The position numbers and the translations under genes were made by a program. 64,000 nt of DNA, taken from NCBI RefSeq assembly GCF_965641715.1, contig NZ_OZ282453.1. The stretch is one strand, 5' to 3'. The stretch is from Escherichia coli. Lineage in GTDB: Bacteria > Pseudomonadota > Gammaproteobacteria > Enterobacterales > Enterobacteriaceae. The notes beneath the pieces are model-generated. The model did no database searches and was not told the DNA's origin. It saw nothing but the letters and a program-made list of their open reading frames with translations. Shown here piece by piece: positions 16,206 to 35,621 of this stretch (its first letter is position 1; each line of letters begins with the position of its first letter).

Positions 16206-16210
16206 ATTAT

Positions 16211-16235
16211 CACAGCCCCGATAAAGTGGGCTGTG
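16211..16235. terminator. Hairpin (cacagccc/gggctgtg) downstream of cargo operon, possible terminator
   Basis: 8-bp inverted repeat followed by T-rich stretch. Confidence 0.35.
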
Positions 16236-16300
16236 ATGTTATTATCTGTGGTTCTTGAGTTACAGGGCTGAATATAATGTTGAGATGTTTATTTTGAAAA

Positions 16301-17308: not shown

Positions 17309-17309
17309 C

Positions 17310-19079
17310 TTAGTTAATATCCAGAATTGAGGTTGATTGCATGCCGCTACCGGCGGAAAGCGGCTCGTTTAACAGGGCGTGCATGGTCGCCCACGCAATA
17401 TCCGCGTGACTGGCTTCCTCGCTGCGGCTGGCTTCATAGGTGGCACTGCGCCCGCTGCTGGTCATGGTTTTACGGATCGCCATAAATGACTGCGTGATGT
17501 CGGTTGCTCCGGCGTCATATTCCAGACACCCGCGTCGGATGGTGTCTTTCGCTTTCAGCACCATCGCGGTTTTCATTTCCGGCGTGTAGCGAATGGCGCG
17601 CGCTGCCGGGAAGAAGGAGCGCACGAGCTGGTAAACACCCTGGCCGATGCCGGTCGCATCGATGCCGATATACTCGACGCAATATTTCTCTGTCAGCTCG
17701 CGGATGGCCTCGGCCTGCGTCGCAAAACCCATCCCTTTCCACTGGTGACGCTCAAGGATGCGGAACTTGCCACCGGCAACCAGTGGCGGAGCCAGTACCG
17801 CACAGCCTGCGCTGTCGCCGGTGTGCGACGGGTCATAGCCAATCCAGACCGGACGCCAGTTAAACGGACGGTCAGAGAACGGCGCAAAGTCCTCCCATTC
17901 TTCCATCGCATCGACCATGCAGCGCTGCAGCTCCTCGAACGGGAATACCGACGCTTTATCGTCGACGAATTCGCACATGAAGAGGTTGCGGAAATCGTCG
18001 GCGCTGTTTTCCTGTTTCAGTTGATCCAGATTAAACAGGGTGCAGCCACCGGCGAGGGCATCCTCAATGGTGACGATCTGCCGCCACTGCCCGTCCGGGC
18101 ACAGCACGCCACCGGCGAGCGCCTTATGACTGATGTCAATGTCGACACGCTCACTCGCGCTGCTGCGTCCCCTGTTGAACAGCTCACCTGACCAGAACGG
18201 ATACGCGCCGTGCGCCAGCGTCGAAGGGGTTGAAAAATAGGTGGTGCGCAGGTGGGATTGTGACGCCATCCCCGAGGCCACTTTACGCAGCCGCTGAAAG
18301 TTGGGGATCCAGAAGATTTCATCGACATACAGGTCGCCGTTATGGCTCTGCGCGGTGTTGGAGTTTGTCCCGAGGAAAATCAGCTCTGCACCGTTGTTGC
18401 CGATAACAATCGGGTCGCCTGACAGGTCGACGTCGACCATGCGCGCAAAGGCGATGATGTACTTTCGGAACACGTAAGCCAGCGTCTTACTGGCTGACAA
18501 AAATATCTGGTTTTGCCCGGTTTTGAGGGCGCGCAGTAATGACTCACGGGCAAAGTAGAACGTCGCGCCAATCTGGCGTGATTTGAGGATGTGGCGAATA
18601 CGGTGCGCGATACCGGCCTTGTGCCAGTTGAGCTGATACTCAAAGGACTGGTCGAAGAAAATCTCTTCCAGCTTTTCGATGGCCTCATCGCTGAAAAAAT
18701 TGCGTTTCGGCTTGCGGCGATCGCCCTTGTTACGACTGGCAATGTTGGGGTTTAAATCCACTTCATTACCGGTCTGGCCGTAGCGGTTGATGCGTGCGAA
18801 CCGTTCCATCTGGCGTGACAGAAAGTCAGCGACCTTAAAGTCATGCGGCGTCAGGTCAGGCTTTGCATAAAGCTGAATCAGGCGCGCCTCGAGCGTCGTT
18901 TCCACGCGGTTAAGCGGGGCGGTTTCCTCCCACCCGTCACGCTGTTTCCAGCTCTGCACGGTCGGGCGCTTAACCTGCAGTGTGTCGGCGATTTGTGGCA
19001 CGGAAAATCCCTGCCAGAACAACAGCCGCGCCTGTCGTCGCGGGTCATGCAAAAGGGAGAGGTCAGTCGAAATGGTCAT
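17310..19079 (-). CDS. Terminase large subunit (P2 gpP-like, 589 aa)
   Basis: Start at ATG giving MTISTDLSLLHDPRRQARLL as in P2 P; the TTG at 19109 is rejected. Confidence 0.9.
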   Translation of the reverse strand: MTISTDLSLLHDPRRQARLLFWQGFSVPQIADTLQVKRPTVQSWKQRDGWEETAPLNRVETTLEARLIQLYAKPDLTPHDFKVADFLSRQMERFARINRYGQTGNEVDLNPNIASRNKGDRRKPKRNFFSDEAIEKLEEIFFDQSFEYQLNWHKAGIAHRIRHILKSRQIGATFYFARESLLRALKTGQNQIFLSASKTLAYVFRKYIIAFARMVDVDLSGDPIVIGNNGAELIFLGTNSNTAQSHNGDLYVDEIFWIPNFQRLRKVASGMASQSHLRTTYFSTPSTLAHGAYPFWSGELFNRGRSSASERVDIDISHKALAGGVLCPDGQWRQIVTIEDALAGGCTLFNLDQLKQENSADDFRNLFMCEFVDDKASVFPFEELQRCMVDAMEEWEDFAPFSDRPFNWRPVWIGYDPSHTGDSAGCAVLAPPLVAGGKFRILERHQWKGMGFATQAEAIRELTEKYCVEYIGIDATGIGQGVYQLVRSFFPAARAIRYTPEMKTAMVLKAKDTIRRGCLEYDAGATDITQSFMAIRKTMTSSGRSATYEASRSEEASHADIAWATMHALLNEPLSAGSGMQSTSILDIN

Positions 19080-19109
19080 GGTTGCCTCGTACTGGTGAAT
19101 ACGGGGCAA

Positions 19110-19245
19110 GGCTAAGGAAATAGCCGGGTATTATCGCTAACCCCCTGTTGTGTCAGGGGTTGCACTTCCGCAAGCGGTGGCTGATGTGGGGCGGAGTCGG
19201 GAAACTACCCCCGAACCGAAAACCCAACATCAGGACACCTGAACA
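19110..19245. promoter_or_regulatory. Divergent late promoter region between P and O (Ogr-dependent promoters expected); partial TGT..ACA dyad ctgttgtgtcaggggttgcac
   Basis: Position plus partial dyad; by analogy with P2 PP/PO. Confidence 0.35.
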
Positions 19246-20100
19246 ATGGCAAAGAAAGTTTCTAAATGGTTTCGCATTGGCGTCGAGGGTGACACCTGCG
19301 ATGGCCGTGTCATCAGCGGTGATGACATTCAGGAAATGGCGGATTCCTTCGACCCGCGTGTCTATGGCTGTCGCATTAACCTCGAACACCTGCGCGGCAT
19401 TCTGCCCGACAGTGTGCTCAAACGTTATGGCGACGTGACCGAAGTAAAAGCGGAAATCATCAGCGATGACTCTGCCCTGAATGGCAAAAAGGCGCTGTTT
19501 GGCAAAATCGCACCGCTGGACGAACTGGTCAGCATGGTGCGCAGCGGTCAGAAAGTTTACACCTCGATGGAGATCCGCCCTAACTTCGCCAACAGCGGCA
19601 AATGTTATCTCGTTGGCCTGGCGGTGACCGATGACCCGGCAAGCCTCGGCACCGAATACCTCGAATTCTGCAGCCGTGCGACCCAGAACCCGTTGGCCGG
19701 TAAAAAAGCTCACCCTGACGACCTGTTTTCCGTTGCCACGCTGGCTGAGCTGGAATTCGAGGACGTCCCCGACACTGTCCTCAACAGCCTGACCGACAAG
19801 GTCAAAGCCATTTTCAGCCGCAAGCAGGCGAGCGATGACGCGCGTCTGGCAGATGTGCATGAGGCGGTCACTACTGTCACTGAGCAGGTGCAGACCAGCC
19901 TGAGCAATAGCGAAAAACGTGTAACCGAACTCGAAACCGCGTTTGCGCAGTTTAAGCAGGATGTGACCCGCCAGACCGAAGAAAACGCGCAGGCGTTTAC
20001 CACGCTGAAAAGTTCCCTCGATAACACCGAGAGCCATCGCCAGCCGCGCCGCGAGAAGTCGAAAGGCGGAACGGGCGACGAGCTGCTGACCAACTGCTGA
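19246..20100 (+). CDS. Capsid scaffolding protein (P2 gpO-like)
   Basis: 284 aa, identical length to P2 O, position. Confidence 0.85.
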   Translation: MAKKVSKWFRIGVEGDTCDGRVISGDDIQEMADSFDPRVYGCRINLEHLRGILPDSVLKRYGDVTEVKAEIISDDSALNGKKALFGKIAPLDELVSMVRSGQKVYTSMEIRPNFANSGKCYLVGLAVTDDPASLGTEYLEFCSRATQNPLAGKKAHPDDLFSVATLAELEFEDVPDTVLNSLTDKVKAIFSRKQASDDARLADVHEAVTTVTEQVQTSLSNSEKRVTELETAFAQFKQDVTRQTEENAQAFTTLKSSLDNTESHRQPRREKSKGGTGDELLTNC

Positions 20101-20160
20101 TAACCCGCCGGGTGCGCGTCACCCGGCCTGATGCCCCTTTTTAGAAAAACAGGAATAACA

Positions 20161-21228
20161 ATGCGTAAAGATACCCGCTTTAAATTTAATGCTTACCTGT
20201 CCCGCGTGGCGGAGCTGAACGGCGTCGACACCGACGATGTGGCAAAGAAATTCACCGTCGAGCCGTCCGTGACGCAAACCCTGATGACCACCCTGCAGGC
20301 GTCATCTGCGTTTCTGACCAAAGTGAATATCGTGCCGGTCGACGAGCTGAAAGGCGAAAAAGTCGGGGTGGGCGTCAACGGTACGATTGCCAGCACCACT
20401 GACACCGCCGCTGATGATGAGCGTAAGACCGCTGATTTTACCGCGCTCGAATCCAACAAATACGAATGTGCGCAAATCAACTTCGATTTCCATATTCGTT
20501 ACAAACAGCTCGATCTGTGGGCGCGATTCCAGGACTTTCAGACCCGTATCCGTGACGCGATTATCAAGCGCCAGTCGCTCGATTTCATCATGGCCGGTTT
20601 CAACGGTATTACCCGTGCGGCGACCTCCAACCGTAAGCAGAACCCGCTGCTGCAGGATGTCGCGGTGGGCTGGCTGCAAAAGTACCGCAATGAAGCTGCG
20701 GCACGCGTGATGTCAAAAATCACCGACGAAGACGGCAAGGTGATTTCCGATGTGATCCGCGTGGGTAAAAACGGTGACTATGAAAACCTCGATGCGCTGG
20801 TCATGGATGCGACCACCAACCTGATTGATGAGATTTATCAGGATGACCCGGAGCTCGTCGTTATCACTGGCCGTAAGCTGATGGCGGATAAATATTTCCC
20901 GCTGGTCAACAAGGCGCAGGAAAACAGCGAAACGCTGGCCGCTGACATCATCATCAGCCAGAAGCGGATCGGCAACCTGCCCGCCGTGCGCGTGCCGTAC
21001 TTCCCGGCGAATGCCCTGATGGTGACGCGCCTCGATAACCTGTCGATTTACTTCATGGATGATGCGCACCGCCGCGCCATCATTGAAGAGCCGAAAAAAG
21101 ACCGTATCGAAAACTACGAGTCAATGAATATTGACTATGTGATCGAGGCTTACGCGGCCGGTTGCCTGATTGAGAACATCAATTTAGGTGACTTCACTGC
21201 ACCTGCCGCACCGGAAAGCGGGGAGTAA
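20161..21228 (+). CDS. Major capsid protein (P2 gpN-like)
   Basis: Start at MRKDTRFKFNAYLSRVAELNG matching P2 N N-terminus. Confidence 0.9.
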   Translation: MRKDTRFKFNAYLSRVAELNGVDTDDVAKKFTVEPSVTQTLMTTLQASSAFLTKVNIVPVDELKGEKVGVGVNGTIASTTDTAADDERKTADFTALESNKYECAQINFDFHIRYKQLDLWARFQDFQTRIRDAIIKRQSLDFIMAGFNGITRAATSNRKQNPLLQDVAVGWLQKYRNEAAARVMSKITDEDGKVISDVIRVGKNGDYENLDALVMDATTNLIDEIYQDDPELVVITGRKLMADKYFPLVNKAQENSETLAADIIISQKRIGNLPAVRVPYFPANALMVTRLDNLSIYFMDDAHRRAIIEEPKKDRIENYESMNIDYVIEAYAAGCLIENINLGDFTAPAAPESGE

Positions 21229-21231
21229 GCC

Positions 21232-21987
21232 ATGACGAGTCCCGCAGCGCGTCACATGATGCGGGTCTCGGCCTCTGAAACTGCGCGGCGGGCTGCTGCT
21301 CCGCTGCGCAATGCAACTGCCTATGAGCAGATGCTCGTCAAGCTGGCCGCAGACTGTCGCACGTTAAAACAAATCCGCTCCAACGAGCGCAAGGCAGACA
21401 AAAAACGTGAGCTGTTACCGTTTTATCTGCCGTGGGTGGCTGGAGTCATCGCCAGTGGCAAAGGGGCACAGGATGACATCGTCATGACCGTCATGCTCTG
21501 GCGTCTTGATGCTGATGACATTGCCGGTGCGCTGGAAATCGCCCGCTACGCGATGACGTATGGCCTGACCATGCCGACCGGCGGCCACCGCCGCACAACG
21601 CCGTATTTACTGGCCGAAGAGGTCGCCCTGTCAGCGCAGCGCTTGCTTGATGCAAAACAGCCAGTCGTGCTGTCGCTCCTGCTCGACACCATCGCACTGA
21701 CCGAACGTGCAGACATGCCCGATATCGTGCGCGCGAAGTTGTACAAAATCACCGGCTACGTGCTGCGTGATGCTGGCAACCTGACTGACGCGCTGGCGCA
21801 CCTGCAGCGTGCGATCCAGTTAGAACGGACTATCGGTGTGAAAAAGGATATTGAGCAGCTTGAACGCGCGCTGAGACCCAAACCAGAACCTGCACCCAAA
21901 CAGAATAAACCGCGTACGCGCAAACCTGCCGCTAAACCGGCGGCACAGCGCGGGCGTCCCCCGAAAGCGGCAAAAGCCGCAGGTTAA
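21232..21987 (+). CDS. Terminase small subunit (P2 gpM-like)
   Basis: 251 aa, position, basic PKP-rich C-terminus. Confidence 0.8.
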   Translation: MTSPAARHMMRVSASETARRAAAPLRNATAYEQMLVKLAADCRTLKQIRSNERKADKKRELLPFYLPWVAGVIASGKGAQDDIVMTVMLWRLDADDIAGALEIARYAMTYGLTMPTGGHRRTTPYLLAEEVALSAQRLLDAKQPVVLSLLLDTIALTERADMPDIVRAKLYKITGYVLRDAGNLTDALAHLQRAIQLERTIGVKKDIEQLERALRPKPEPAPKQNKPRTRKPAAKPAAQRGRPPKAAKAAG

Positions 21988-22086
21988 CCGAGCGCTCCCC
22001 GAGCCGGGCGGCACGCCGGTCAATGCGGGTATTGATTGCCCTGACTGCGACCGGCGTCCACCGCCCACCCATTACCCGAGGTTGTC

Positions 22087-22593
22087 ATGACGACAGTGAT
22101 TATTGAGCCAAAAAAAGAGCCGCAGGACGTGCCGGGCGTGGTGATACCGCCACCGGGCGTGAGTGAGCCGGCAATAAAAAACACCTTCTTTTTTCCTGAT
22201 GTTGATCCGAAGCGCGTGCGTGAGCTGATGCGTCTGGAGCAGACCGTTTCCCCGCTGCGCCTGAATGATGCGATTAAAGCCGGTATGGCCGAAACCAATG
22301 CGGAGCTTGCCCTGTGGCGGGTTGACCAGATGGCCGCAGGTCATCAGACGCTGGCAGATGTGCCTGCCGATGATATCGACGGTGAAAGCGTGCGCTGTTT
22401 CCACTATTTCCGCGCCGTCTGCGCCATGACCAGCGCCACCCTGTTTGAACGCTATCGCGGCATCGATGCGACGGCGAAAGGTGACCGCAAGGCGGAAAGC
22501 ACCGAGGCGGTTATCGATGAACTGTGGCGGGATATGCGCTGGTCTGTGGCGCGTATTCAGGATAAGCCGCGCTGCATTGTCGGCCAAATCTGA
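22087..22593 (+). CDS. Capsid completion protein (P2 gpL-like)
   Basis: 168 aa, position. Confidence 0.8.
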   Translation: MTTVIIEPKKEPQDVPGVVIPPPGVSEPAIKNTFFFPDVDPKRVRELMRLEQTVSPLRLNDAIKAGMAETNAELALWRVDQMAAGHQTLADVPADDIDGESVRCFHYFRAVCAMTSATLFERYRGIDATAKGDRKAESTEAVIDELWRDMRWSVARIQDKPRCIVGQI

Positions 22594-22796
22594 TGAAGGT
22601 TTACGCGATGCAGGGTGACACCCTTGATGCGATTTGCGCCCGGTATTACGGGCGCACTGAGGGCGTCGTTGAAACGGTGCTGCAGGCGAATCCGGGGCTG
22701 TCAGAGTTGGGCGTTATTCTACCGCACGGCACGGCCATTGAACTGCCCGAAACCGACAGCGCCCCGAAAACCGAAACGGTGATTCTATGGGACTGA
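22593..22796 (+). CDS. Tail protein X-like (67 aa)
   Basis: Size and position as P2 X. Confidence 0.65.
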   Translation: MKVYAMQGDTLDAICARYYGRTEGVVETVLQANPGLSELGVILPHGTAIELPETDSAPKTETVILWD

Positions 22797-23008
22797 GTGT
22801 GGAAAAAATCACGACCTTTATCGCTTACTGGCTGGCCGTGGGGCTGGCGTATTTCGGGGCGATGTCGCCCGAAAAGCTGGCGCTGTATGTGGGGAGTGCC
22901 TGCGCCATTTTTACCGCGCTGACGAATTACTGGTTTAAGCGCAAAACCTTTCGCTATCTGAAATCGCTCGGACTCGATAAGGGGGCGATACGTGAGCTCA
23001 ATCATTAA
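22787..23008 (+). CDS. Putative holin/pinholin (73 aa, two hydrophobic segments)
   Basis: Small membrane protein immediately upstream of SAR endolysin. Confidence 0.5.
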   Translation: MGLSVEKITTFIAYWLAVGLAYFGAMSPEKLALYVGSACAIFTALTNYWFKRKTFRYLKSLGLDKGAIRELNH

Positions 23009-23501
23009 ACGCTGCAGTGTGGCCGCCGTGCTGGCGCTGGCGGCACTGGTGCCTGACTTTCGTCTGCTTAACACCTCGCCCGAGGGGCTGGCGCTGATTG
23101 CTGACCTTGAAGGATGTCGCCTGACGCCTTACCAGTGCAGCGCGGGCGTGTGGACGTCGGGCATTGGCCACACTGCCGGGGTTGTCCCGAAAGGGGATAT
23201 TACCGAACAGCGCGCGGCGGAAAACCTCGTCGCGGATGTGCTCAACACTGAGCAACGGCTCGCGGTCTGTGTGCCGGTGGATATGCCACCGCGCGTCTAT
23301 GACACGCTGGTCAGTTTTGCCTTTAACGTGGGAACGGGGGCCGCCTGCCGGTCGACGCTGGTCTCGTATATCAAACGTCATCAGTGGTGGCAGGCGTGCG
23401 ACCAGCTCACCCGCTGGGTGTATGTGAAGGGTGTCCGAAACCGGGGGCTGGAAAACCGCCGCGATCGGGAGTGGGCTTACTGCGTTAAGGGGATGCAATG
23501 A
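22992..23501 (+). CDS. SAR endolysin (phage lysozyme family) with N-terminal signal-anchor-release segment
   Basis: N-terminal hydrophobic CSVAAVLALAALV; lysozyme-like core (GLALIADLEGCRLTPY...GIGHT). Confidence 0.8.
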   Translation: MSSIIKRCSVAAVLALAALVPDFRLLNTSPEGLALIADLEGCRLTPYQCSAGVWTSGIGHTAGVVPKGDITEQRAAENLVADVLNTEQRLAVCVPVDMPPRVYDTLVSFAFNVGTGAACRSTLVSYIKRHQWWQACDQLTRWVYVKGVRNRGLENRRDREWAYCVKGMQ

Positions 23502-23923
23502 AAGTGCTGATTATTCTGCTGGCCGGGTTGCTCGCCATGGTGCTGTGGCTGCGCCACGATAACGCGAATTTATCCCGCTCCTTTGAAAAGGCGAACCGGG
23601 TCGCCAATGAGCAAAAGACGACGATTGGCATGCTGAAAAATCAGTTTGCCGTATCGCAGCGCATCGCCAGGACGAATGAAGCCGTGCAGGTCAGGCTCAG
23701 TGACGAGCTGAACGCCGCCGGAGAGCTGGCGGCAAGACGTGAACAAACCATAACGAGGCTGCTGAATGAAAACGAGGATTTGCGCCGCTGGTATAGCGCT
23801 GATTTGCCTGATGCTGTGCGCCGGTTGCACATCCGCACCGGCTGCGCCTCCGCTGCCTATTGTTTACAACGCCTGCCCGAAGGTGAGCTTCTGCCCGATG
23901 CCGGGCAGCGATCCCACGACTAA
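23498..23923 (+). CDS. i-spanin (LysB/Rz-like)
   Basis: N-terminal TM segment, coiled-coil rich, position after endolysin. Confidence 0.6.
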   Translation: MKVLIILLAGLLAMVLWLRHDNANLSRSFEKANRVANEQKTTIGMLKNQFAVSQRIARTNEAVQVRLSDELNAAGELAARREQTITRLLNENEDLRRWYSADLPDAVRRLHIRTGCASAAYCLQRLPEGELLPDAGQRSHD

Positions 23924-24056
23924 CGGCGACCTGAGTGCTGATATTCGCAGGCTTGAGCACGCGCTCACCGCCTGCGCGCTAAAGGTCGAAACCATCAAAG
24001 ACTGTCAGGATAAAATCGATGCAGAAAATGAAAAGCCTGCGCCAGGCGCTTACTGA
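23766..24056 (+). CDS. o-spanin (LysC/Rz1-like lipoprotein) embedded out of frame in i-spanin gene
   Basis: Lipobox LCAGC, proline-rich, overlaps end of i-spanin. Confidence 0.55.
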   Translation: MKTRICAAGIALICLMLCAGCTSAPAAPPLPIVYNACPKVSFCPMPGSDPTTNGDLSADIRRLEHALTACALKVETIKDCQDKIDAENEKPAPGAY

Positions 24057-24486
24057 CGCCGTGCCGCAGTTAAAAAACAATCCCGAAATGATGCGCATCT
24101 TTGCCGATGAGGGAAATATCTATGCGCGTCTCGCGGCCTCGCTGTCTCATGAAAAGAATTACACCCTGAATGTGATCGTCTGCGATTTTGTGGGCGACCC
24201 TGACCTGATTTTCGTGCCGGTGGCGGCATGGCTGCGTGAGAACCAGCCGGATATCTGCACGCTGGATGAGGGGCGCAAAAAGGGCTATCGGTTCCAGATG
24301 GATTTAAACGACGGTGATAATGTGGATATCAGTATCAGCCTGCAGCTCACCGAGCGCACTCTCGTCAGGGATGAAAATGGTGCGCTGCACGTCAGCTATG
24401 CGCCTGAACCACCTTTACCCGAGCCGGTGACGCGGCCAACTGAGCTGTATATCAATGGCGAACTGGTGAGCAAATGGGATGAATGA
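24019..24486 (+). CDS. Tail completion protein R-like
   Basis: 155 aa as P2 R, position. Confidence 0.7.
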   Translation: MQKMKSLRQALTDAVPQLKNNPEMMRIFADEGNIYARLAASLSHEKNYTLNVIVCDFVGDPDLIFVPVAAWLRENQPDICTLDEGRKKGYRFQMDLNDGDNVDISISLQLTERTLVRDENGALHVSYAPEPPLPEPVTRPTELYINGELVSKWDE

Positions 24487-24946
24487 ATTTAAACCTTTTG
24501 ATGACAAGCTTGCGGGGTTGATTGCGGCAATATCACCGGCGGGTAGGCGTAAGCTGGCCGCTGAAATAGCAAAGCAACTGCGCAGATCGCAACAGCAACG
24601 CATCAAACAGCAAATTGCGCCTGATGGCACGCCGTATCAGGCTCGTAAGCGCCAGCCGCTCAGGGCAAAATCGGGGCGAATCAAAAGGTCGATGTTCCAG
24701 AAATTGCGAACCAGTCGCTACATGAAAGCCAGTGGCCGCAATGATGCCGCCGTGGTGGAGTTTACCGGCAAAGTGCAACGCATCGCCCAGATTCATCAGC
24801 TCGGACTCAAAGACCGGCCAAACCCTCATGCTCAGGACGTGCAATACCCGGAACGCCAGTTACTCGGATTTAGCATGACTGATAAGGAGTTGATTGAACT
24901 GTTAATTAACATGCATTTCAGAAAAAATACTGTGGCTGAATGCTGA
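24479..24946 (+). CDS. Tail completion protein S-like
   Basis: 155 aa, position. Confidence 0.7.
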   Translation: MNEFKPFDDKLAGLIAAISPAGRRKLAAEIAKQLRRSQQQRIKQQIAPDGTPYQARKRQPLRAKSGRIKRSMFQKLRTSRYMKASGRNDAAVVEFTGKVQRIAQIHQLGLKDRPNPHAQDVQYPERQLLGFSMTDKELIELLINMHFRKNTVAEC

Positions 24947-25038
24947 GAGTCCTAAGAAAATAGAGAAAGCAGATATTATACAAAAAAGATAATATCTGCT
25001 GCTGGGTCGATATTTGAATGTATTTATTTAATCTATTG

Positions 25039-25791
25039 CTAACGTTCGAATATTATTATCACCCCAAGAGTGAGATGTATATGATCTTCTATTTGTTCAT
25101 ATTCTTCTTGGGTGTAAGAAAGTTTAGCTAATTCTTCTGTTGCTGAAAAGACATCAATGGATACTTGGACGCCTGATGGGATTTCATTTTTTATTTCATT
25201 AATGTATTTGTTGTATTTTCTTGTGATTAGTATTATTGCGCGATCTCTGTCGACGGTGGTTGAGCAATATCGATTGGATTTGCTGTTGTTATTGTGGAAT
25301 GATTCGAATGCGCAATTGAGGGCAAGTCTTAGATTTGATGATCCTGTATTTCCAGTGTGATTGAAGTATTCTATGTTTCTTCTTAAGTCTTCAAATAGTT
25401 TTGCCTTATTTGGATTGTCCCCTTTAACTTCAATAGCACATTTTGGATAATCAAACCCATTATTATTGCCTAGTATGGCAATGTCTATCCTACCTTTTCT
25501 GGTTGTGTTTGCTTTGATTCTTAGTATTTGCCTTGAAAATATTTTCCCCGGCGTTAGTCTTTTTGAAAATGGCACCGTTGAAGTTATAAAATCCCCTGTA
25601 TCATATTCAAAAATTATTTTCTCATCATCTATGTGAAAATTTTTACTATCAAGTAGGGCTTTGCCTATTGATACAGTAGCGACGTATTCGGTATTGATTT
25701 TACCACCAGAACTGAAATTCATTAAACGTGTGATTTTAGCTGCATTGGACATGCCATCCTTTACTGCTGTGATTATTTCGTAATTGTCCAT
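25039..25791 (-). CDS. AT-rich cargo protein (250 aa) with PD-(D/E)xK-like nuclease motif
   Basis: Opposite strand to flanking tail genes; motif GRIDIAIL..(17 aa)..AIEVKGDN (D103, E121, K123; 25423..25485); strongly AT-rich. Confidence 0.6.
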   Translation of the reverse strand: MDNYEIITAVKDGMSNAAKITRLMNFSSGGKINTEYVATVSIGKALLDSKNFHIDDEKIIFEYDTGDFITSTVPFSKRLTPGKIFSRQILRIKANTTRKGRIDIAILGNNNGFDYPKCAIEVKGDNPNKAKLFEDLRRNIEYFNHTGNTGSSNLRLALNCAFESFHNNNSKSNRYCSTTVDRDRAIILITRKYNKYINEIKNEIPSGVQVSIDVFSATEELAKLSYTQEEYEQIEDHIHLTLGVIIIFER

Positions 25792-26109
25792 ATTATTTAC
25801 TCAGGTAACTGTTTTATTTTGATTGTTCTTACTGGATGTTTTATAAGTATAATAATTTGGATTATGCTAATCAACTAGTCTTCTTTCGGCTTTTACTAAT
25901 GACTCATTTATGAATGATAATGTTATGATTCCAGCAACCGAAGTGGGTATTTTTTTGCACCCAAGTGATCGTTTTGTGGAACTAATATGAGTCTATAAGT
26001 ATCCCTATTTCACTAGTAGGTTGAGACGTCACACTTGCTGGCTGTTGTTTCATGCCCCACAAAACTCAGCTCAATTGTCGCTGGCCTCACTAGGCGGCAT
26101 CCTTTCCCC

Positions 26110-26751
26110 ATGAATACTTTAAATTCCATTCAGGATATCGCCCGAGCGATCCGAAACCTTATCCGCACCGGCATTGTGACTGCAGTCAATCCCGATGAGG
26201 GGCTTTGTCGTGTCCAGACCGGCGGCATGCAAACCACCTGGCTAAACTGGCTGACCTGCCGCGCCGGTCGCTCGCGTGTCTGGTGGGCTCCCTCGGTTGG
26301 CGAGCAGGTGCTTATTCTTGCCATTGGTGGCGAGCTTGACACCGCCTTTGTGCTGCCTGGTATTTTCTCTGATGACCATCCCGCGCCGTCGACCTCGCCC
26401 GATGCGTTTCACGTCACTTTTCCTGACGGGGCGGTTATCGAGTACGAGCCCGAAAACGGGGCGCTCACCGTGTCCGGTATCAAAACTGCCGACGTTACCG
26501 CATCGGAGTCCATCACCGCCACCGTGCCGGTGGTGCTGGTTAAGGCATCGACCTGCATCACCCTCGATACACCCGAGGTGGTGTGTACCAACAAGCTGAC
26601 AACCGGCACGCTCGAAGTGAAAAAAGGCGGGACGATGTCGGGGAACATCGAGCACACCGGCGGGAAATTTACCTCGAACGGCGTGCAGGTCGATGACCAC
26701 GACCACGGCGGCGTGAAGCGGGGCGATGACAGAACGGTGGGGACACAATGA
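26110..26751 (+). CDS. Baseplate spike protein V-like
   Basis: Start at MNTLNSIQDIARAIRNLIRTG; position. Confidence 0.85.
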   Translation: MNTLNSIQDIARAIRNLIRTGIVTAVNPDEGLCRVQTGGMQTTWLNWLTCRAGRSRVWWAPSVGEQVLILAIGGELDTAFVLPGIFSDDHPAPSTSPDAFHVTFPDGAVIEYEPENGALTVSGIKTADVTASESITATVPVVLVKASTCITLDTPEVVCTNKLTTGTLEVKKGGTMSGNIEHTGGKFTSNGVQVDDHDHGGVKRGDDRTVGTQ

Positions 26752-27098
26752 TGGTGCGTTATCTGGGAATGAACAGCCACACCGGTCTCAGTATTTCTGA
26801 GGTGGAACACATCAGGCAAAGCGTGCGCGACATTCTGGTCACGCCGGTGGGCTCGCGGGTCATGCGTCGGGAATATGGCTCGCTACTGTCTGCACTGATT
26901 GACCAGCCGCAGACCCCGGCGCTGCGCCTGCAGATTATGGCCGCGTGCTACTCGGCTATCCAGAAGTGGGAACCGCGCGTCAGTTTGTCGACCATCGCCT
27001 TTGAACGCGGAGAGGATGACGGAGCGATGTACGTCGATATGACCGGCACGCGTTCGGCATCAGGCCAGCCTTTTTCTATCACCCTTCCACTGAGTTAA
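26748..27098 (+). CDS. Baseplate protein W-like
   Basis: 116 aa, position. Confidence 0.8.
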   Translation: MMVRYLGMNSHTGLSISEVEHIRQSVRDILVTPVGSRVMRREYGSLLSALIDQPQTPALRLQIMAACYSAIQKWEPRVSLSTIAFERGEDDGAMYVDMTGTRSASGQPFSITLPLS

Positions 27099-27103
27099 AC
27101 GTT

Positions 27104-28012
27104 ATGGCTATTGTTGACCTGAGCCAGCTCGCCGCACCTGATGTTGTGGAAGAGCTGGACTATGAAACCATCCTGACAGAGCGAAAGGCGACGCTCGTCT
27201 CGCTGTATCCCGAAGAGCAACAAGACGCGGTCGCGCGCACGCTGACGTTTGAATCAGAGCCGATCGTGAAACTGCTGCAGGAAAATGCTTATCGGGAGGT
27301 TATCTGGCGTCAGCGTGTCAATGAGTCGGCACGGGCGGTGATGCTGGCTTACGCTGCCGGTCATGACCTCGATAACCTTGGCGCAAATTACAACGTTGAA
27401 CGTCTCGTTATTACGCCTGCTGATGAAACCACGCTGCCGCCGACACCTGCTGTGATGGAGTCGGACACCGATTATCGCCTGCGTATTCAACAGGCTTTTG
27501 AGGGAATGAGTGTTGCCGGGTCGACCGGTGCGTATCAGTTTCATGGCCGCAGCGCTGACGGGCGGGTCGCCGATATTTCTGTTATCAGCCCGGAGCCTGC
27601 CTGCGTGACCGTGTCGGTGCTGTCCCGGGAGAATAACGGCGCGGCATCCGGGGAACTGCTCGCCGTGGTGCGTAATGCGCTGAACGATGAGGATGTGAGG
27701 CCGGTTGCTGACCGTGTGACCGTGCAGTCGGCGGTCATTGTCGACTACACCATTGATGCCGCGCTTTATCTTTATCCCGGCCCCGAAAGCGAGCCGGTGC
27801 TCAGTGCGGCAAAAGCGAAGCTGCAGACCTATATCAACGCGCAGCACCGGCTCGGGCGTGACATCCGCAAGTCTGCCATCTATGCAGCACTCCACGTTGA
27901 GGGCGTGCAGCGTGTCGAACTTGTCGCGCCGGTGGCTGACATCGTACTCAATGAGACGCAGGCGTCATATTGCACTGCGTACAGTGTAAATATCGGGGGC
28001 AACGATGAGTGA
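27104..28012 (+). CDS. Baseplate protein J-like
   Basis: 302 aa as P2 J. Confidence 0.85.
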   Translation: MAIVDLSQLAAPDVVEELDYETILTERKATLVSLYPEEQQDAVARTLTFESEPIVKLLQENAYREVIWRQRVNESARAVMLAYAAGHDLDNLGANYNVERLVITPADETTLPPTPAVMESDTDYRLRIQQAFEGMSVAGSTGAYQFHGRSADGRVADISVISPEPACVTVSVLSRENNGAASGELLAVVRNALNDEDVRPVADRVTVQSAVIVDYTIDAALYLYPGPESEPVLSAAKAKLQTYINAQHRLGRDIRKSAIYAALHVEGVQRVELVAPVADIVLNETQASYCTAYSVNIGGNDE

Positions 28013-28535
28013 TACCCGTCTGCTGCCGGTGGGCTCGTCGCCGCTTGAGGTGGCGGCGGCGCGCGCCTGCGCGGATATCGAAAATACCCCTGTCCCGCTG
28101 CGTCGCCTCTGGAACCCTGACAACTGCCCCGCAAACCTGCTGCCGTGGCTGGCCTGGGCGTTTTCGGTTGATCGCTGGGATGAGAGCTGGCCGGAAGAAA
28201 CCAAACGCGAGGTTATCCGCAGCGCGTGGTTTATCCATGCGCACAAAGGGACGATAGGTGCGGTGCGTCGTGTGGTCGAGCCGCTCGGGTATCTGATTAA
28301 CGTGACGGAGTGGTGGGAGACGAACGACCCGCCGGGCACGTTTCGCCTTGATATCGGCGTGCTGGAGACCGGCATCACCGAGGAAATGTATTACGAAATG
28401 GAGAGGCTTATTGCTGATGCAAAGCCAGCCAGCCGCCATCTTATTGGCCTGAATATTATCCAGGACATACCGGGTTATCTCTTCACCGGAGCCCTGACCT
28501 ATGACGGCGACATCATCACGGTTTACCCCGGATAA
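28005..28535 (+). CDS. Baseplate protein I-like
   Basis: 176 aa as P2 I. Confidence 0.8.
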
Positions 28536-28546
28536 GTGAGAACACA

Positions 28547-30229
28547 ATGACAGTGAAATATAAAACCGTTATCACCCGAGCCGGTGCGGAAAAACTGGCG
28601 GCGGCGACGCTCCCGAACGGGAAAAAAGTCAATTTTGCGGTGATGGCCGTCGGGGACGGTGGCGGTAAGCTTCCCGAGCCGGACGCCAGTCAGACAAAAC
28701 TCGTCAATGAGGTCTGGCGTCATGCGCTGAACAAAATCTGCCTGGACAAAAAACATAAAAATTATGTCGTGGCGGAGCTGGTGATCCCCCCGGAGACCGG
28801 CGGTTTCTGGCTGCGTGAAATGGGGCTTTACGATGACACCGGCACGCTGATTGCGGTCGGCAATATGGCCGAAAGTTATAAGCCCGAACTGGCGGAAGGG
28901 TCAGGCCGCGCACAGACGCTGCGCATGGTGATCATGGTGAGCGATATCGACACCGTCGAGCTGTCCATCGATACAACACTGGTGATGGCGACGCAGGATT
29001 ATGTCGACGATAAACTCGCAGAGCATGAGCAGTCCCGTCGCCATCCTGACGCCACGCTGAAAGAAAAAGGGTTCACGCAGTTAAGCAGTGCGACCGACAG
29101 CACGTCTGAGGCGCTCGCCGCGACGCCGAAAGCGGTCAAAGTGGCGTATGACCTTGCGAAAGGTAAATACACGGCTCAGGACGCGACCACGGCGCAGAAA
29201 GGGATTGTCCAGCTCAGTAGCGCCACCGACAGCGTGTCTGAGACCCTCGCCGCGACGCCGAAAGCGGTTAAGGCGGCGAATGATAATGCTAATGGCCGCG
29301 TTCCTTCCTCGCGCAAAATTAACGGACATTCCCTGAATGCTGACATCAGTGTCACCTCGCAGGATATTTTCGACGGTCAGGCTATTGGGCTGGTAATGGA
29401 GGATTTAGATACCCTGAAAACGCCGGGTATTTACTTTCAGCCAGCGAACGCCAATACCTCAGCCGCCAGACATTACCCTGAAAATAACGCCGGGACGCTG
29501 GTCATTTATAAAAATGCCGGAGTGACTCAGGTATACCGGGTTTATAACAGCTCCCGGAGCTACTCGCGCAGCCAGTATTCAACAGGTGCATGGACACCGT
29601 GGACGCCTGATGATGTTTTTCCGGTAGGCGCGCCCGTTGCGTGGCCGTCTGACAGTGTTCCTGCTGGTTATGCCGTCATGCAGGGACAAACTTTTGATAA
29701 AGCCGCTTATCCGCTTCTTGCGGCTGTGTACCCATCGGGTGTTATTCCTGATATGCGGGGCTGGACAATCAAAGGTAAACCGGCCAGCGGTCGTGCAGTG
29801 CTTTCACAGGAACTGGATGGCATCAAGTCACATACTCACAGCGCAAGTGCATCAAATACAGACTTAGGTACTAAATCAAGCAGTGCATTTGATTACGGTA
29901 CTAAAACGGCCAGCACATTTGACTATGGTACTAAAACCACTAACAGCACCGGAGCGCATGCGCACGGTATTTCTGTTGGTAACACAGGCGCAGGTAATGG
30001 TATTTCAGCAGGTTACAACTCAGGGCTGGGCAATGGAACGACGGGGAGTGCAGGTGCGCACGCCCATACGGTCGGTATTGGCGCTCACAACCACACCGTT
30101 GGAATTGGTGCTCACAGTCATACTGTGGCAATAGGGGCTCACGGACATAACATCACTGTTAACGCAGCCGGTAACGCTGAAAACACCGTCAAAAACATCG
30201 CATTCAACTATATCGTGAGGCTTGCCTGA
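28547..30229 (+). CDS. Tail fibre protein H-like (560 aa) with internal repeats and HxH-repeat C-terminal tip
   Basis: Conserved N-terminus ([28 protein letters not shown]), duplicated [17 protein letters not shown] repeats, C-terminal GAH.HT repeats. Confidence 0.85.
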
Positions 30230-30807
30230 TGACTTTCAAAATGACCGGGAAAAGCCGGACAATCACTGTTTATAACTATCGCGCAGATACCTGTGAATTT
30301 ATTGGAAAAGGTGACGCCCTGATCCCACCATTTACCGGACTCCCTGCCTGTTGTACCAGTGAAAAACCGCCAGAAACCAGCGCGGGATGTATTCCCGTTT
30401 ACGACACTGAAAGCGGACGATGGAACATCACTGAAGACCACAGGGGTGAGGTTGTCTATGACACTGAAACAGGTCATCAGATGGAGATAACCGAACCGGG
30501 TAAATATCCGACAGGGACAACAACCGCTGCACCTGAAAACCCGTGGCAAAAATGGAATGGTAAAGCATGGATTGATGATGCTGATGCAGAACGGAATGCA
30601 TTGACTGAGTCTGCGAAAAACAACAAAAGCATGCTTCTTAAGCAGGCCAATACTGCGGTTGCGACATTACAGGACGCTGTTGATCTGGAGATGGCAACCG
30701 AAGATGAAAAAGCACAGCTCGCGGCATGGAGGAAATACCGTGTTTTACTGAGCCGCATCCAGCCAGAGAATGCCCCGGATATTGAATGGCCGCCGCTGCC
30801 AGTCTGA
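30229..30807 (+). CDS. Tail fibre assembly chaperone (G-like)
   Basis: 192 aa, translationally coupled to H. Confidence 0.75.
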   Translation: MTFKMTGKSRTITVYNYRADTCEFIGKGDALIPPFTGLPACCTSEKPPETSAGCIPVYDTESGRWNITEDHRGEVVYDTETGHQMEITEPGKYPTGTTTAAPENPWQKWNGKAWIDDADAERNALTESAKNNKSMLLKQANTAVATLQDAVDLEMATEDEKAQLAAWRKYRVLLSRIQPENAPDIEWPPLPV

Positions 30808-30941
30808 TCCGACATCCGGCGGGCAGTTGCCCGCCTTTTCCTTTCCCGTCGTTGTGCCAGACCTTAGCCAACCCTGACAAATAGCCCCTCATCACCACAC
30901 AACAGAAAATACACTCACCCCTTAACCACGGAGTTAAACGG

Positions 30942-32135
30942 ATGAGTGACTATCATCACGGCGTCGAGGTCATCGAGATTAACGATGGCGTGCGCACCAT
31001 TTCCACCGTTTCAACCGCCATTATCGGCATGGTCTGTACGGCCAGCGATGCTGACGAGAAAACATTTCCCCTCAATGAGCCGGTACTCATTACGAACGTG
31101 CAGAGTGCTATCGGTAAGGCTGGCAAAAAGGGCACGCTGTCGACGTCCCTGCAGGCTATCGCTGACCAGTGCAAACCTGTCATCGTGGCCGTGCGTGTGG
31201 CCGAAGGTATTGAAGATCCGGAGAACCCCGAAGCGGCGCACAAACAGACCATTTCCAATATCATCGGCACCACCGATGAAAACGGCAAATATACCGGGCT
31301 GAAAGCCCTGCTGACGGCGAAAACCGTCACCGGCGTTAAGCCACGGATTCTCGGCGTGCCGGGGCTGGATTCGCAGGAAGTGGCGACCGCGCTCGCGTCC
31401 ACCTGTCAGAGCCTGCGCGCCTTTGGCTATATCAGCGCGTGGGGCTGTAAAACCATTTCCGATGCCATCGACTACCGCGAGAATTTCAGCCAGCGTGAGC
31501 TGATGGTCATCTTCCCTGATTTTCTGGCATGGGACACCACGGCGAACGCGACCGCGACAACCTGGGCGACGGCGCGCGCACTCGGCCTGCGTGCCAAAAT
31601 CGACCAGACGGTCGGCTGGCATAAAACCCTGTCTAACGTTGGCGTTAACGGTGTGACCGGCGTCAGTGCCTCAGTATCGTGGGATTTGCAGGAACCGGCG
31701 ACCGACGCCAACCTGCTGAATCAGGCTGGTGTCACTACGCTTATCCGCAATGATGGTTTCAAATTTTGGGGAAACCGTACCTGCTCAGATGATCCGCTTT
31801 TCCTGTTTGAAAACTACACCCGCACCGCGCAGGTGCTGGCCGACACGATGGCGGAGGCGCACGCGTGGGCGATGGATAAACCCATTACCCCGACCCTCAT
31901 TCGCGATATCGTTTCCGGTATCAATGCCAAATTCCGCGAGCTGAAAACCAACGGTTATATCGTTGACGGCTTCTGCTGGTACGACCCGGAGTCGAACGAC
32001 ACCGCGACCCTGAAAGTGGGGAAACTGTATATCGATTACGACTACACCCCCGTCCCGCCGCTGGAAAATCTGACCCTGCGCCAGCGCATCACCGATACCT
32101 ATCTGGCGAACCTGTCAGACTCGGTCAACAGCTAA
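30942..32135 (+). CDS. Tail sheath protein FI-like
   Basis: 397 aa as P2 FI. Confidence 0.9.
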   Translation: MSDYHHGVEVIEINDGVRTISTVSTAIIGMVCTASDADEKTFPLNEPVLITNVQSAIGKAGKKGTLSTSLQAIADQCKPVIVAVRVAEGIEDPENPEAAHKQTISNIIGTTDENGKYTGLKALLTAKTVTGVKPRILGVPGLDSQEVATALASTCQSLRAFGYISAWGCKTISDAIDYRENFSQRELMVIFPDFLAWDTTANATATTWATARALGLRAKIDQTVGWHKTLSNVGVNGVTGVSASVSWDLQEPATDANLLNQAGVTTLIRNDGFKFWGNRTCSDDPLFLFENYTRTAQVLADTMAEAHAWAMDKPITPTLIRDIVSGINAKFRELKTNGYIVDGFCWYDPESNDTATLKVGKLYIDYDYTPVPPLENLTLRQRITDTYLANLSDSVNS

Positions 32136-32147
32136 GGAGCTCTGAGC

Positions 32148-32666
32148 ATGGCGTTACCCCGCAAACTGAAATACCTGAACATGTTCAACGATGGCCTCAG
32201 CTATATGGGCGTTGTTGAATCCGTCACCCTGCCAAAACTGACCCGCAAGCTGGAGAAATATCGCGGCGGCGGAATGCCGGGGGCGGTGTCGGTTGACCTC
32301 GGCCTCGATGATGATGCGCTGTCGCTTGAGTGGACGCTCGGTGGTCTGCCTGACATTGAATTGTGGGTGCAGTACGCCTCGCCGGGTGCTGACAGTGTGC
32401 CGCTGCGCTTTACCAGCTCTTATCAGCGTGACGACACCGGCGCGATTTCTGCCGTCGAGGTAGTGATGCGTGGCCGTCATAAAGAATACGACGGCGGTGA
32501 AAACAAGCAGGGCGAAAGCGGCACGACCAAAATGGCGACCGAGTGCGCCTATTACCAGCTCACGATTGATGGCAAAGAAGTCATCGAAATTGACGTGATC
32601 AACATGGTGCTGAAAGTCGACGGTGTCGACCGTATGGCAGAGCATCGCAAGGCGATTGGCCTGTAA
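32148..32666 (+). CDS. Tail tube protein FII-like
   Basis: 172 aa as P2 FII. Confidence 0.9.
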   Translation: MALPRKLKYLNMFNDGLSYMGVVESVTLPKLTRKLEKYRGGGMPGAVSVDLGLDDDALSLEWTLGGLPDIELWVQYASPGADSVPLRFTSSYQRDDTGAISAVEVVMRGRHKEYDGGENKQGESGTTKMATECAYYQLTIDGKEVIEIDVINMVLKVDGVDRMAEHRKAIGL

Positions 32667-32720
32667 TCCCTCAACCGGTCAGCGGGGCTGGCCGGTCACT
32701 TACCCTGATGAGAAATTCGC

Positions 32721-33035
32721 ATGAAAAATATCAATGAAACTGCTGTTGCTGGCACTGAAAACGTCAATCCGAATGTCGTTATTTTTGACACGCCGCTGAT
32801 GCGTGGTGAGCAGAAAATTGAACAGGTCACCTTAACCAAACCAAACGCGGGAACCCTGCGCGGGGTGTCGCTGGCCTCGCTGGCAAGTTCCGACGTTGAC
32901 GCGCTGATTAAGGTGCTGCCGCGCATGACGTATCCGGCACTGACCGAGCACGAGCTCGCGCGTCTGGATGCGTCAGACCTGATTTCGCTGGCCGGTAAGG
33001 TGGTCGGTTTTTTGTCACCGGCTTCGGGTCGCTGA
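32721..33035 (+). CDS. Tail assembly chaperone E-like
   Basis: 104 aa, position before tape measure. Confidence 0.75.
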   Translation: MKNINETAVAGTENVNPNVVIFDTPLMRGEQKIEQVTLTKPNAGTLRGVSLASLASSDVDALIKVLPRMTYPALTEHELARLDASDLISLAGKVVGFLSPASGR

Positions 33036-33190
33036 CCTTCCCGGAAAAACTGTCGGTCGATGACCTGATGGCGGATATCGCGGTGATCTTCCACTGGCCG
33101 CCATCAGAGCTAAATTCCCTGAGCGTGACCGAGCTCCTGACATGGCGCGATAAGGCGCTGCAACGAAGCGGAAGCCATCATGAGCAATAA
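32721..33190 (+). CDS. E+E' product by programmed -1 frameshift at slippery T-TTT-TTG (33008..33014)
   Basis: Slippery heptamer near end of E; -1 frame stays open to the TAA at 33188..33190, overlapping the T start. Confidence 0.55.
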
Positions 33191-35621
33191 CGTCAGAATC
33201 GAGGTGCTGCTGAACGCAGTCGACCGGGCAAGCCGCCCGCTTAAAGCGATTCAGAACGCCAGCAAATCCCTGTCCGGTGATATCCGCAATTCACAAAAAA
33301 GCCTGCGCGAACTTAATGCGCAGGCGTCCCGTATTGACGGATTCCGCAAAGCCAGCGCACAGCTTGCCGTGACCGGTCACTCGCTTGAGAAAGCGAAACA
33401 GGAAGCGCAAGCCCTTGTCACGCAATTTAAAAACACCGAGCGCCCGACACGTGCGCAGGCGCAGGTGCTTGAATCGGCAAAGCGTGCCGCCGACGGGCTG
33501 CAGACGAAATACAACAGCCTAACTGAGTCTGTGAAACGCCAGCAACGCGAGCTCGGTGCTGTCGGGATTAATACCCGTAATCTGGCAAATGATGAGCGGG
33601 GGCTCAAATCGCGCATCAGTGAGACGACTGCGCAGCTCAATCGGCAGCGTGAGGCACTGGCGAAAGTCAGCGCACAGCAGGCAAAGTTAAGCCGGGTGAA
33701 AGCGCGGTATCAGGCCGGTAAATCGCTTGCCGGTAGCATGGCGGCGGCTGGCGCGGCCGGTGTCGGTATTGCGACAACAGGAACCATGGCCGGGGTCAAG
33801 CTGCTGACGCCGGGTTATGAATTTGCACAGAAAAACTCAAAGCTGCAGGCAGTGCTCGGTGTCGACAAACAGTCGCCTGAAATGCAGGCGCTGCGTAAAC
33901 AAGCGCGCCAGCTCGGTGACAATACCGCTGCCTCTGCCGATGATGCGGCGGGTGCGCAGATTATCATCGCGAAAAGCGGCGGTGATGCGGCGGCCATTCA
34001 GGCGGCGACGCCGGTCACACTGAATATGGCGCTGTCCAACAAGCGCACGATGGAAGAGAACGCCGCGCTGCTGACGGGCATGAAATCCGCTTTCCAGCTC
34101 TCTAACGATAAAGTCGCGCATATTGGCGATGTTCTCTCGATGACGATGAACAAAACCGCCGCTGACTTTGACGGGATGAGCGATGCGCTGACCTATACCG
34201 CGCCGGTGGCGAAAAATGCCGGGGTGAGTATCGAAGAAACCGCCGCGATGGTGGGGGCGCTGCACGATTCTAAAATCACCGGCTCGATGGCGGGTACAGG
34301 GAGCCGTGCCGTTCTGAGTCGCCTGCAGGCGCCGACCGGTAAAGCCTACGACGCCATCAAAGAGCTCGGCATTAAAACGAGCGACAGCAAAGGCAATACG
34401 CGCCCGATATTTTCCATCCTGAAGGAAATGCAGCGCAGTTTTGAGAAAAACAATCTCGGAACGGGTCAGAAAGCCGAATACATGAAAACCATTTTCGGTG
34501 AAGAAGCCAGCTCAGCGGCCGCTGTGCTGATGGCCGCCGCATCAAACGGCAAGCTCGACCAGCTCACCGCCGCGTTTAAAGCCTCGGACGGCAAGACTGA
34601 GGAGCTGGTTAAGGTTATGCAGGATAACCTCGGCGGCGACTTTAAAGAGTTTCAGTCAGCCTATGAGGCGGTTGGCACTGACCTGTTTGATCAGCAGGAG
34701 GGCTCACTGCGTAAGCTGACGCAGACGGCCACGCAATATGTGCTCAGGCTCGACGGCTGGATCCAGAAAAATAAAGGGCTGGCGACCACCATCGGCGTGG
34801 TGGTCGGGGGTGCGCTGGCGCTGATTGGTGTAATGGGCGGGATTGGCCTTGTCGCATGGCCGGTGGTAATGGGGATTAATGCCATCATTGCGGCGGCTGG
34901 CGTGCTCGGTGTGGTTTTCAGTACGGTTGGAGGCGCGATTGTCACGGCCATTGGCGCAATCAGCCTGCCGGTGCTGGCGGTTGCCGGTGCCGTGGTGGCC
35001 GGTGCGTTGCTGATCCGTAAATACTGGGAGCCGCTCGGTGCATTTTTCTCGGGCGTGGTGGAGGGACTGAAAGCCGCCTTTGCACCGGTGGGGGACATGT
35101 TTACCCCGCTCGCGCCGGTGTTTGACGCCATCGCTGAAAAGCTGGGTGTCGTCTGCCAGTGGTTTAAAGACCTGCTTGCGCCGGTGAAAGCCACGCAGGA
35201 CACGCTCTCCAGTTGCAAAAATGTCGGCGTTACTTTTGGTCAGGCGCTGGCTGATGCGCTGATGATGCCGCTCAAGATGTTTAACAGCCTGAGCGGCAAG
35301 GTCGGCTGGCTGCTGGAGAAACTCGGCGTTATCAAAAAAGAATCCAGCGACCTCGACCAGACCGCAGCGAAAGCGAATAAGGCGTCCCCGAATGGCGGGT
35401 ATATCCCTGCGACCGCAGGTTATGGCGGGTATCAGGCGTATCAGCCGGTCACAGCGCCCGCAGGCCTGTCTTATATCGACCAGAGCAAAAGCGAATACAA
35501 CATCAACCTGCAGGGCGGAGTCGCACCGGGCAGTGACCTTGACCGCCAGCTCCGTGACGCGGTCGACAAACTTGACCGCGAGAAACGTGCGCGTCAGCGA
35601 TCCAGTATGAGACTCGACTGA
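33180..35621 (+). CDS. Tail tape measure protein T-like
   Basis: 813 aa, coiled-coil N-terminus, glycine/alanine-rich TM-like core. Confidence 0.85.
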   Translation: MSNNVRIEVLLNAVDRASRPLKAIQNASKSLSGDIRNSQKSLRELNAQASRIDGFRKASAQLAVTGHSLEKAKQEAQALVTQFKNTERPTRAQAQVLESAKRAADGLQTKYNSLTESVKRQQRELGAVGINTRNLANDERGLKSRISETTAQLNRQREALAKVSAQQAKLSRVKARYQAGKSLAGSMAAAGAAGVGIATTGTMAGVKLLTPGYEFAQKNSKLQAVLGVDKQSPEMQALRKQARQLGDNTAASADDAAGAQIIIAKSGGDAAAIQAATPVTLNMALSNKRTMEENAALLTGMKSAFQLSNDKVAHIGDVLSMTMNKTAADFDGMSDALTYTAPVAKNAGVSIEETAAMVGALHDSKITGSMAGTGSRAVLSRLQAPTGKAYDAIKELGIKTSDSKGNTRPIFSILKEMQRSFEKNNLGTGQKAEYMKTIFGEEASSAAAVLMAAASNGKLDQLTAAFKASDGKTEELVKVMQDNLGGDFKEFQSAYEAVGTDLFDQQEGSLRKLTQTATQYVLRLDGWIQKNKGLATTIGVVVGGALALIGVMGGIGLVAWPVVMGINAIIAAAGVLGVVFSTVGGAIVTAIGAISLPVLAVAGAVVAGALLIRKYWEPLGAFFSGVVEGLKAAFAPVGDMFTPLAPVFDAIAEKLGVVCQWFKDLLAPVKATQDTLSSCKNVGVTFGQALADALMMPLKMFNSLSGKVGWLLEKLGVIKKESSDLDQTAAKANKASPNGGYIPATAGYGGYQAYQPVTAPAGLSYIDQSKSEYNINLQGGVAPGSDLDRQLRDAVDKLDREKRARQRSSMRLD

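Follow-up and report, generated by a model that had tools for sequence, protein, structure and literature searches.

Tin is, to our knowledge, among the oldest known prophage-encoded exclusion genes, and since 1997 the way it works has received little renewed attention. In phage P2, tin is annotated as [quoted passage not shown] and lies in the A-Q region, downstream of old and on the old-tin transcript. As relayed in passages of two papers citing Mosig 1997 (PMC8594841 and bioRxiv 10.1101/2022.08.27.505566), Tin acts on T-even DNA replication via the single-stranded DNA (ssDNA)-binding protein gp32, and the published model, as those citing passages convey it, is one of gp32 "poisoning" and not of DNA cleavage. 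When the BASEL panel was set against P2 Tin, all Tevenvirinae were sensitive and none of the other phages were, and PMC9122126 describes immunity from cloned old-tin. In bioRxiv 10.1101/2022.08.27.505566, Tin is listed beside Retron-Eco8, Hachiman, Nhi, and ShosTA, which phages escape via mutations in SSB or replication proteins. Like Tin, these systems are keyed on an abundant essential replication protein, although their components are unrelated and comprise several genes or domains, whereas Tin is one protein of about 250 amino acids (aa).

P2 carries another accessory gene in the gap between tail genes S and V, where the nonessential orf30 lies on the minus strand between the O-operon terminator and the V-promoter activator site. 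The orf30 site has been named, together with the TO and Z regions, as a site of horizontally acquired genes in P2-like phages (PMC3091744). The hotspots discussed in the accessible portions of PMC9122126 and bioRxiv 10.1101/2024.10.15.618418 are A-Q, Z/fun, and D-to-C, and those portions do not mention S-V.

We analysed a stretch of 64,000 nucleotides (the window) from contig NZ_OZ282453.1 of Escherichia coli assembly GCF_965641715.1. The host is identified by the mdtCD-baeSR chromosomal flank, which matches E. coli genomes with 99.6% identity, and the window contains a prophage with approximately 75% DNA similarity to P2-like phages, whose integrase, A, and portal genes were recognised using PHROGs. 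A 22-bp direct repeat, AAAAAATAAGCCCGTGTAAGGG, frames the prophage (copies at 6996-7017 and 38957-38978). Its right-hand copy and the 3' end of the CyaR/RyeE sRNA gene (38960-39045) overlap, indicating that the phage integrated at the end of cyaR and regenerates it. Gene order around the S-V gap is R, S, gap, V, and W (a wedge protein gene) according to PHROGs, followed by J, I, H, and G as in P2; S is 77 to 86% identical to that of related prophages, and V is 85 to 92% identical to V elsewhere. The features at and around the gap are as follows.

6996..38978, no strand: P2-like (Peduovirus) prophage of about 32 kb, with a 22-bp direct repeat at both ends
24019-24486: tail terminator gene R, from PHROGs
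24479..24946, plus strand: tail completion gene S, the left flank, phrog_26
24947..26035, no strand: AT-rich cargo island, from the S stop codon to the conserved region upstream of V, GC 0.335
24968..25000, minus strand: terminator-like feature between S and tin, which converge here: a 12-bp perfect inverted repeat (loop of 9 nt) and then a U-rich tract
25039..25791, minus strand: coding sequence of a 250-aa tin homologue (Tin family, S-V clade), an open reading frame (ORF) with an ATG start and a PADLOC Tin match
25846..25874, minus strand: weak sigma-70-like promoter candidate TTGATT-17-TATACT, 55 nt upstream of the tin ATG
26110..26751, plus strand: baseplate spike gene V, the right flank, phrog_6142 and phrog_9992

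The initial annotation had pointed out a 250-aa minus-strand ORF at the position of P2 orf30 and had described it as far more AT-rich than the tail genes, and both observations hold. The ORF shares its position and strand with P2 orf30, and its GC content is 0.347, compared with 0.335 for the whole 1.09-kb island and 0.50 to 0.57 for the prophage backbone. In sliding windows, GC content falls to 0.31 to 0.37 over about 24950 to 26000, against 0.55 to 0.62 in the flanking tail genes. The ATG assigned to the gene aligns with the N terminus in all 25 homologues compared, and no second plausible ORF was found in the island, leaving the tin homologue alone at a boundary where one late operon ends and another begins, with the tail genes running in the opposite direction.

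The inverted repeat just downstream of the tin gene has a predicted RNA fold of -15.6 kcal/mol, which does not differ significantly from shuffled sequences (z = -1.46), and a scan for consensus terminators did not pick it up; in P2, a terminator is annotated at the corresponding position behind S. Sigma-70-like sites, such as the candidate listed above, are common in DNA this rich in AT (9 observed in the region versus 4.6 ± 2.2 expected from shuffles). Since the promoter and terminator assignments are both weak, expression of the gene in the lysogen is an assumption. The backbone just upstream of V (about 26036 to 26109) is common to other S-V cassettes, and the remainder of the island is specific to this cassette; the first 100 or so alignment columns upstream of V are conserved in the window and in two further loci (L002 and L011). 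Alignment of the upstream regions across the S-V loci and the P2 tin locus revealed conservation in the phage backbone close to V alone and no common promoter or insertion scar, and no flanking direct or inverted repeats hinting at cassette mobility were found at the island. The locus is a solitary AT-rich cassette, acquired horizontally, that occupies the S-V (orf30) variable site in an E. coli P2-like prophage.

Other variable sites of the prophage were also inspected. Its own A-Q (old/tin) hotspot (12425-16205; GC 0.338) holds different cargo, namely, a DUF3850/Orf91-like gene, a small ORF, a gene for a 542-aa ABC-type ATPase, and a gene for a 370-aa partner that is overlapping-adjacent to the ATPase gene. 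The ATPase matches PADLOC NsnB (4.9e-55), PDC-M55A (7.5e-46), and AriA (7e-31), and the sole match of its partner is a weak one to PDC-M55B (2e-4); the two genes probably constitute a second, two-gene defence system of the prophage. A 283-aa ORF (37867-38718) flanked by tail gene D and the right att site occupies the D-to-C region, called a third hotspot in bioRxiv 10.1101/2024.10.15.618418. The encoded protein has a protease-like domain matching the protease part of PADLOC RT-Protease_XI (7e-21) and PDC-M35A (6e-13), and it may represent a third cargo or defence gene. The Z/fun hotspot (G-FI, 30807-30942) is empty, with a gap of 134 bp. Besides, the window has a minus-strand array of type I toxin-antitoxin repeats (ibs/sib) at 53154-54284, between the mdt operon and the next genes, with four Sib antitoxin sRNA genes in tandem.

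The S-V gene looks anonymous in general databases, since searches of Pfam (with both the protein and a 61-sequence alignment), NCBIfam, and PDB by sequence or profile returned nothing significant, and the PHROG to which it belongs (phrog_9821) is labelled "unknown function". The initial annotation accordingly recognised no named system here, and this is the claim that has to be revised. The PADLOC model "Tin" (PDLC02359) matches the protein with an E value of 5.6e-93 over profile positions 2 to 238 of 239, and no other PADLOC model does. When 50,697 phage records were searched by tblastn, the annotated tin gene of phage P2 was the sole match, its product being 55.6% identical across the whole protein (100% coverage; E = 3e-81). 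P2 Tin (NP_046797) and the window protein are collinear over their full lengths (253 and 250 aa) and have all family-invariant residues in common, and both are encoded by a single AT-rich accessory gene of an E. coli P2-like prophage. In contrast, the window gene occupies the S-V (orf30) slot opposite in strand to the tail genes, whereas P2 tin follows old in the A-Q "TO" hotspot. With this homology and the lack of any partner ORF, the proposal that the gene is a single-gene defence or exclusion factor gains support, and we regard it with high confidence as a Tin-family exclusion gene on the basis of sequence. Exclusion of T-even phages by a replication block, with escape through gene 32, is known for P2 Tin and is predicted for the window allele.

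The family is small. Among 5.8 billion proteins it forms 25 clusters at 90% identity, belonging to Enterobacterales throughout where named, and a profile search retrieved 182 representatives at 50% identity, mostly full length at about 250 aa. Only four Tin loci were found in 2.9 million viral contigs, which marks the family as rare. In a neighbour-joining tree, the window protein groups with P0002, P0003, P0005, and P0007, apart from the clade of P2 Tin and other old-linked members; the contexts examined in the window clade (those of the window, P0002, and P0005, with P0003 and P0007 left out) are all S-V gaps. Overall, Tin homologues occur as lone cargo in five kinds of mobile-element context, as follows.

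S-V gap: the window, P0002 (72%), and P0005 (67%)
A-Q region, adjoining old: P2, P0017, and three IMG/VR contigs
AlpA-type islands: Pectobacterium and Klebsiella aerogenes
Adjoining an integrase: a Morganella prophage
A ParAB-bearing element, the vicinity of a lambdoid terminase, and an H-NS/YafO island

Remoter relatives, all of them unnamed singletons, were located in transposase-rich DNA and where a myovirus tail module ends. In Pectobacterium (L005/L006, 3516-3779) and on a metagenomic contig (L025, 1937-2335), two unrelated islands have an H-NS-family gene adjoining the Tin homologue, and these neighbours may reflect xenogeneic silencing of AT-rich Tin cassettes or may be a coincidence. 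On a 36-kb IMG/VR contig (L020, 1161-1909), the homologue appears as two overlapping tblastn segments split at about residue 129, suggesting a frameshifted pseudogene or a sequencing error. Another homologue, P0010, is located approximately 860 bp downstream of a truncated-looking gene for a 373-aa GpA_ATPase protein (lambda-type large terminase; L026/L027, 1017-3753), and its cassette may have been inserted into or beside a decaying lambdoid prophage.

We then considered what kind of protein Tin is. The initial annotation had seen a textbook PD-(D/E)xK arrangement in the ORF, and the strings on which it relied (GRIDIAIL, AIEVK, and FHIDDEKIIFEYD) are all present in the window protein. The codons concerned are as follows.

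25420..25500, minus strand: codons of R98 to G124, the predicted PD-(D/E)xK catalytic core, from family invariance and fold
25483-25485, minus strand: codon of D103
25429-25431, minus strand: codon of E121
25423-25425, minus strand: codon of K123

The bare motif is no evidence by itself, because the pattern D-x(10-30)-[DE]-x-K turned up in 83% of composition-matched shuffles of the window protein; its weight comes from invariance in the family and from the predicted fold, and in this form the claim stands. The blocks G100-R-I-D103 and C118-A-I-E-V-K-G124 are invariant across 26 close sequences. Across 61 relatives that are 19 to 56% identical to the window protein, invariance is confined to seven columns, namely, E35, E62, D103, E121, K123, D135, and R138.

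A confident AlphaFold2 model built from the family alignment (pLDDT, 84.6; pTM, 0.84) has the α-β-β-β-α-β core fold of the PD-(D/E)xK superfamily. D103 is placed at the start of a strand (101-108) and E121 and K123 within another (115-125); a helix bearing E35 (34-48) precedes this core, and a helix with D135 and R138 (129-144) and a strand (156-166) follow it, a layout that we take to be canonical for PD-(D/E)xK proteins. The D...(D/E)-x-K signature thus falls on β2 and β3 with an acidic residue upstream, as judged from placement in the model and from invariance and not from residue superposition. The nuclease-like fold expected by the initial annotation was borne out in that the core of the model matches and its closest structural neighbours are type II restriction enzymes; a Foldseek search against PDB gave no significant result. 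The BamHI/OkrAI/BglII group of type II endonucleases and other PD-(D/E)xK proteins have 8 to 11% identity to the window protein and no profile-level match, and, compared with that group, the window protein has an additional N-terminal helix and a C-terminal α/β extension. The two also differ in role, in that the Tin family is linked to phage exclusion through gp32, whereas type II enzymes perform sequence-specific restriction. From the model and the conservation we infer that the effector part of Tin would be a restriction-endonuclease-like PD-(D/E)xK site composed of E35, E62, D103, and E121-x-K123, together with D135 and R138.

These features lead to the reading that we prefer and consider reasonably probable: the gene encodes a full-length Tin member, carried in an S-V cassette, whose PD-(D/E)xK effector site would act via gp32-coated intermediates. 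The protein would be made in the lysogen; on infection by a T-even-type phage, gp32-coated intermediates of replication or recombination would recruit or activate it, and the PD-(D/E)xK site would then cut DNA at these intermediates, so that replication stops. Given the modelled structure and the conservation of the site, a gp32-dependent nuclease appears most likely, rather than purely stoichiometric "poisoning" of gp32. Catalysis by this modelled site may also be required for Tin action, a narrower point on which our judgment is close to balanced and inclines slightly to the negative.

The strongest competitor is the classical noncatalytic model, in which Tin would bind gp32 or gp32-ssDNA filaments stoichiometrically and the PD-(D/E)xK-like core would serve as a scaffold for binding DNA or protein. 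It agrees with the literature that we searched, covering few subscription journals, where neither a nuclease activity nor a structure was found described for Tin. On the other hand, it does not account for the metal-ligand and catalytic-type residues E35, E62, D103, E121, and K123 (with D135 and R138) being the sole invariant residues down to about 20% identity, and we consider it rather unlikely, if well worth keeping in view.

Somewhat less likely again is that Tin is a nuclease of this fold with another trigger or range, such that the S-V clade would be keyed to a different SSB or replication protein of phages and would act against non-T-even phages. The separate clade of the window protein is consistent with this possibility, as is the unevenness of its divergence from P2 Tin, with 61% identity over residues 1 to 165, which include the core, and 39% over residues 166 to 235 (approximately 39 to 45% for the C-terminal half). 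Column entropy in the family likewise peaks at residues 160 to 235, and we offer the more variable C-terminal half (about 166-235) as a speculative candidate for the specificity region. Furthermore, relatives occur in Pectobacterium, Morganella, Musicola, and Klebsiella aerogenes, which meet other phages. The full-length collinearity with P2 Tin, by contrast, fits the same target; at 56% identity to P2 Tin, the window allele may still differ from it in target range.

A gene without a defensive role is improbable; it would be an orphan endonuclease of the restriction or homing type, a selfish insertion, or a silenced remnant that does nothing for the lysogen. Such an origin would be in line with the type II restriction enzymes as nearest structural neighbours of the model, with an AT-rich island that could be silenced by H-NS (H-NS-like genes adjoin two unrelated Tin homologues, as noted above), and with the one viral-contig copy that looks frameshifted. 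Against it, the gene has neither a methyltransferase nor any other partner beside it, its reading frame is unbroken in a background of 35% GC and keeps all family-invariant residues, and anti-phage activity has been demonstrated for the homologous P2 gene. Two more specific identities were rejected. The neighbours of the gene are S and V, with no methyltransferase beside it, which speaks against a type II restriction-modification system. NucC, the nuclease that serves CBASS and type III CRISPR systems as effector, is activated by cyclic tri-AMP from a partner cyclase. The window protein has no sequence similarity to NucC, the cyclase partner is absent in that no cyclic-oligonucleotide synthase lies in or next to the island, and the only PADLOC match is Tin, so that a CBASS/NucC-type effector was also discarded.

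Returning to our preferred reading, a broader version of it can be put forward tentatively, as possible but doubtful in its entirety: the Tin family would consist of SSB (gp32)-gated PD-(D/E)xK nucleases, contrary to the 1997 poisoning model, the S-V clade would read other phage SSBs via its C-terminal half, and the S-V gap would be a further, as yet unmined defence hotspot beside A-Q and Z/fun. In the searched literature, again with few subscription journals covered, no paper stated the idea of Tin as a nuclease or of the S-V gap as an under-explored cargo slot.

Comparison of the S-V junction across P2-like prophages showed that the gap has differing contents or none at all. The window tin allele was not present between S and V in any of the 5,426 complete E. 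coli genomes; the gaps of other E. coli P2-like prophages either have no insert or carry unrelated genes, with cargo on the minus strand in every case, and Orf30 is also among its contents in the complete genomes. P2 Orf30 resembles the window gene in slot, strand, size (261 aa), and nonessential status, but differs from it in having no detectable homology and no PADLOC match, and with an hhalign probability of 0.2% it was rejected as a Tin relative. A structural or assembly gene of P2-like tails, suggested by nothing except position within the tail cluster, can be dismissed as virtually impossible, since the gene is absent from most P2-like prophages, whose gaps are empty or unrelated in content, Orf30 is unrelated and annotated as nonessential, and Tin homologues also occur outside tail clusters.

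Other cargo in this gap was recorded at four E. coli loci (L013, L014, L015, and L016), comprising proteins of 309, 287, and 398 aa and a HIT-family gene accompanied by a gene for a 173-aa protein. The 287-aa protein has a weak match to PD-T4-7 (4.8e-9), and most of the E. coli S-V cargo is without a PADLOC match. Together these uncharacterised genes are a reservoir of candidate accessory or defence functions.

The locus does not represent a novel type of system, as both Tin and the variable site were already known, and what is new here is modest: a diverged natural tin allele from a separate clade, supplied by a different cargo slot. More generally, the S-V gap of P2-like prophages is a variable slot whose cargo is mostly unannotated and which could be mined like the A-Q hotspot. 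For Tin itself, the family analysis narrows the question of mechanism to whether D103, E121, and K123 matter; if they do, Tin would join the growing class of defence nucleases that are triggered by phage replication proteins.
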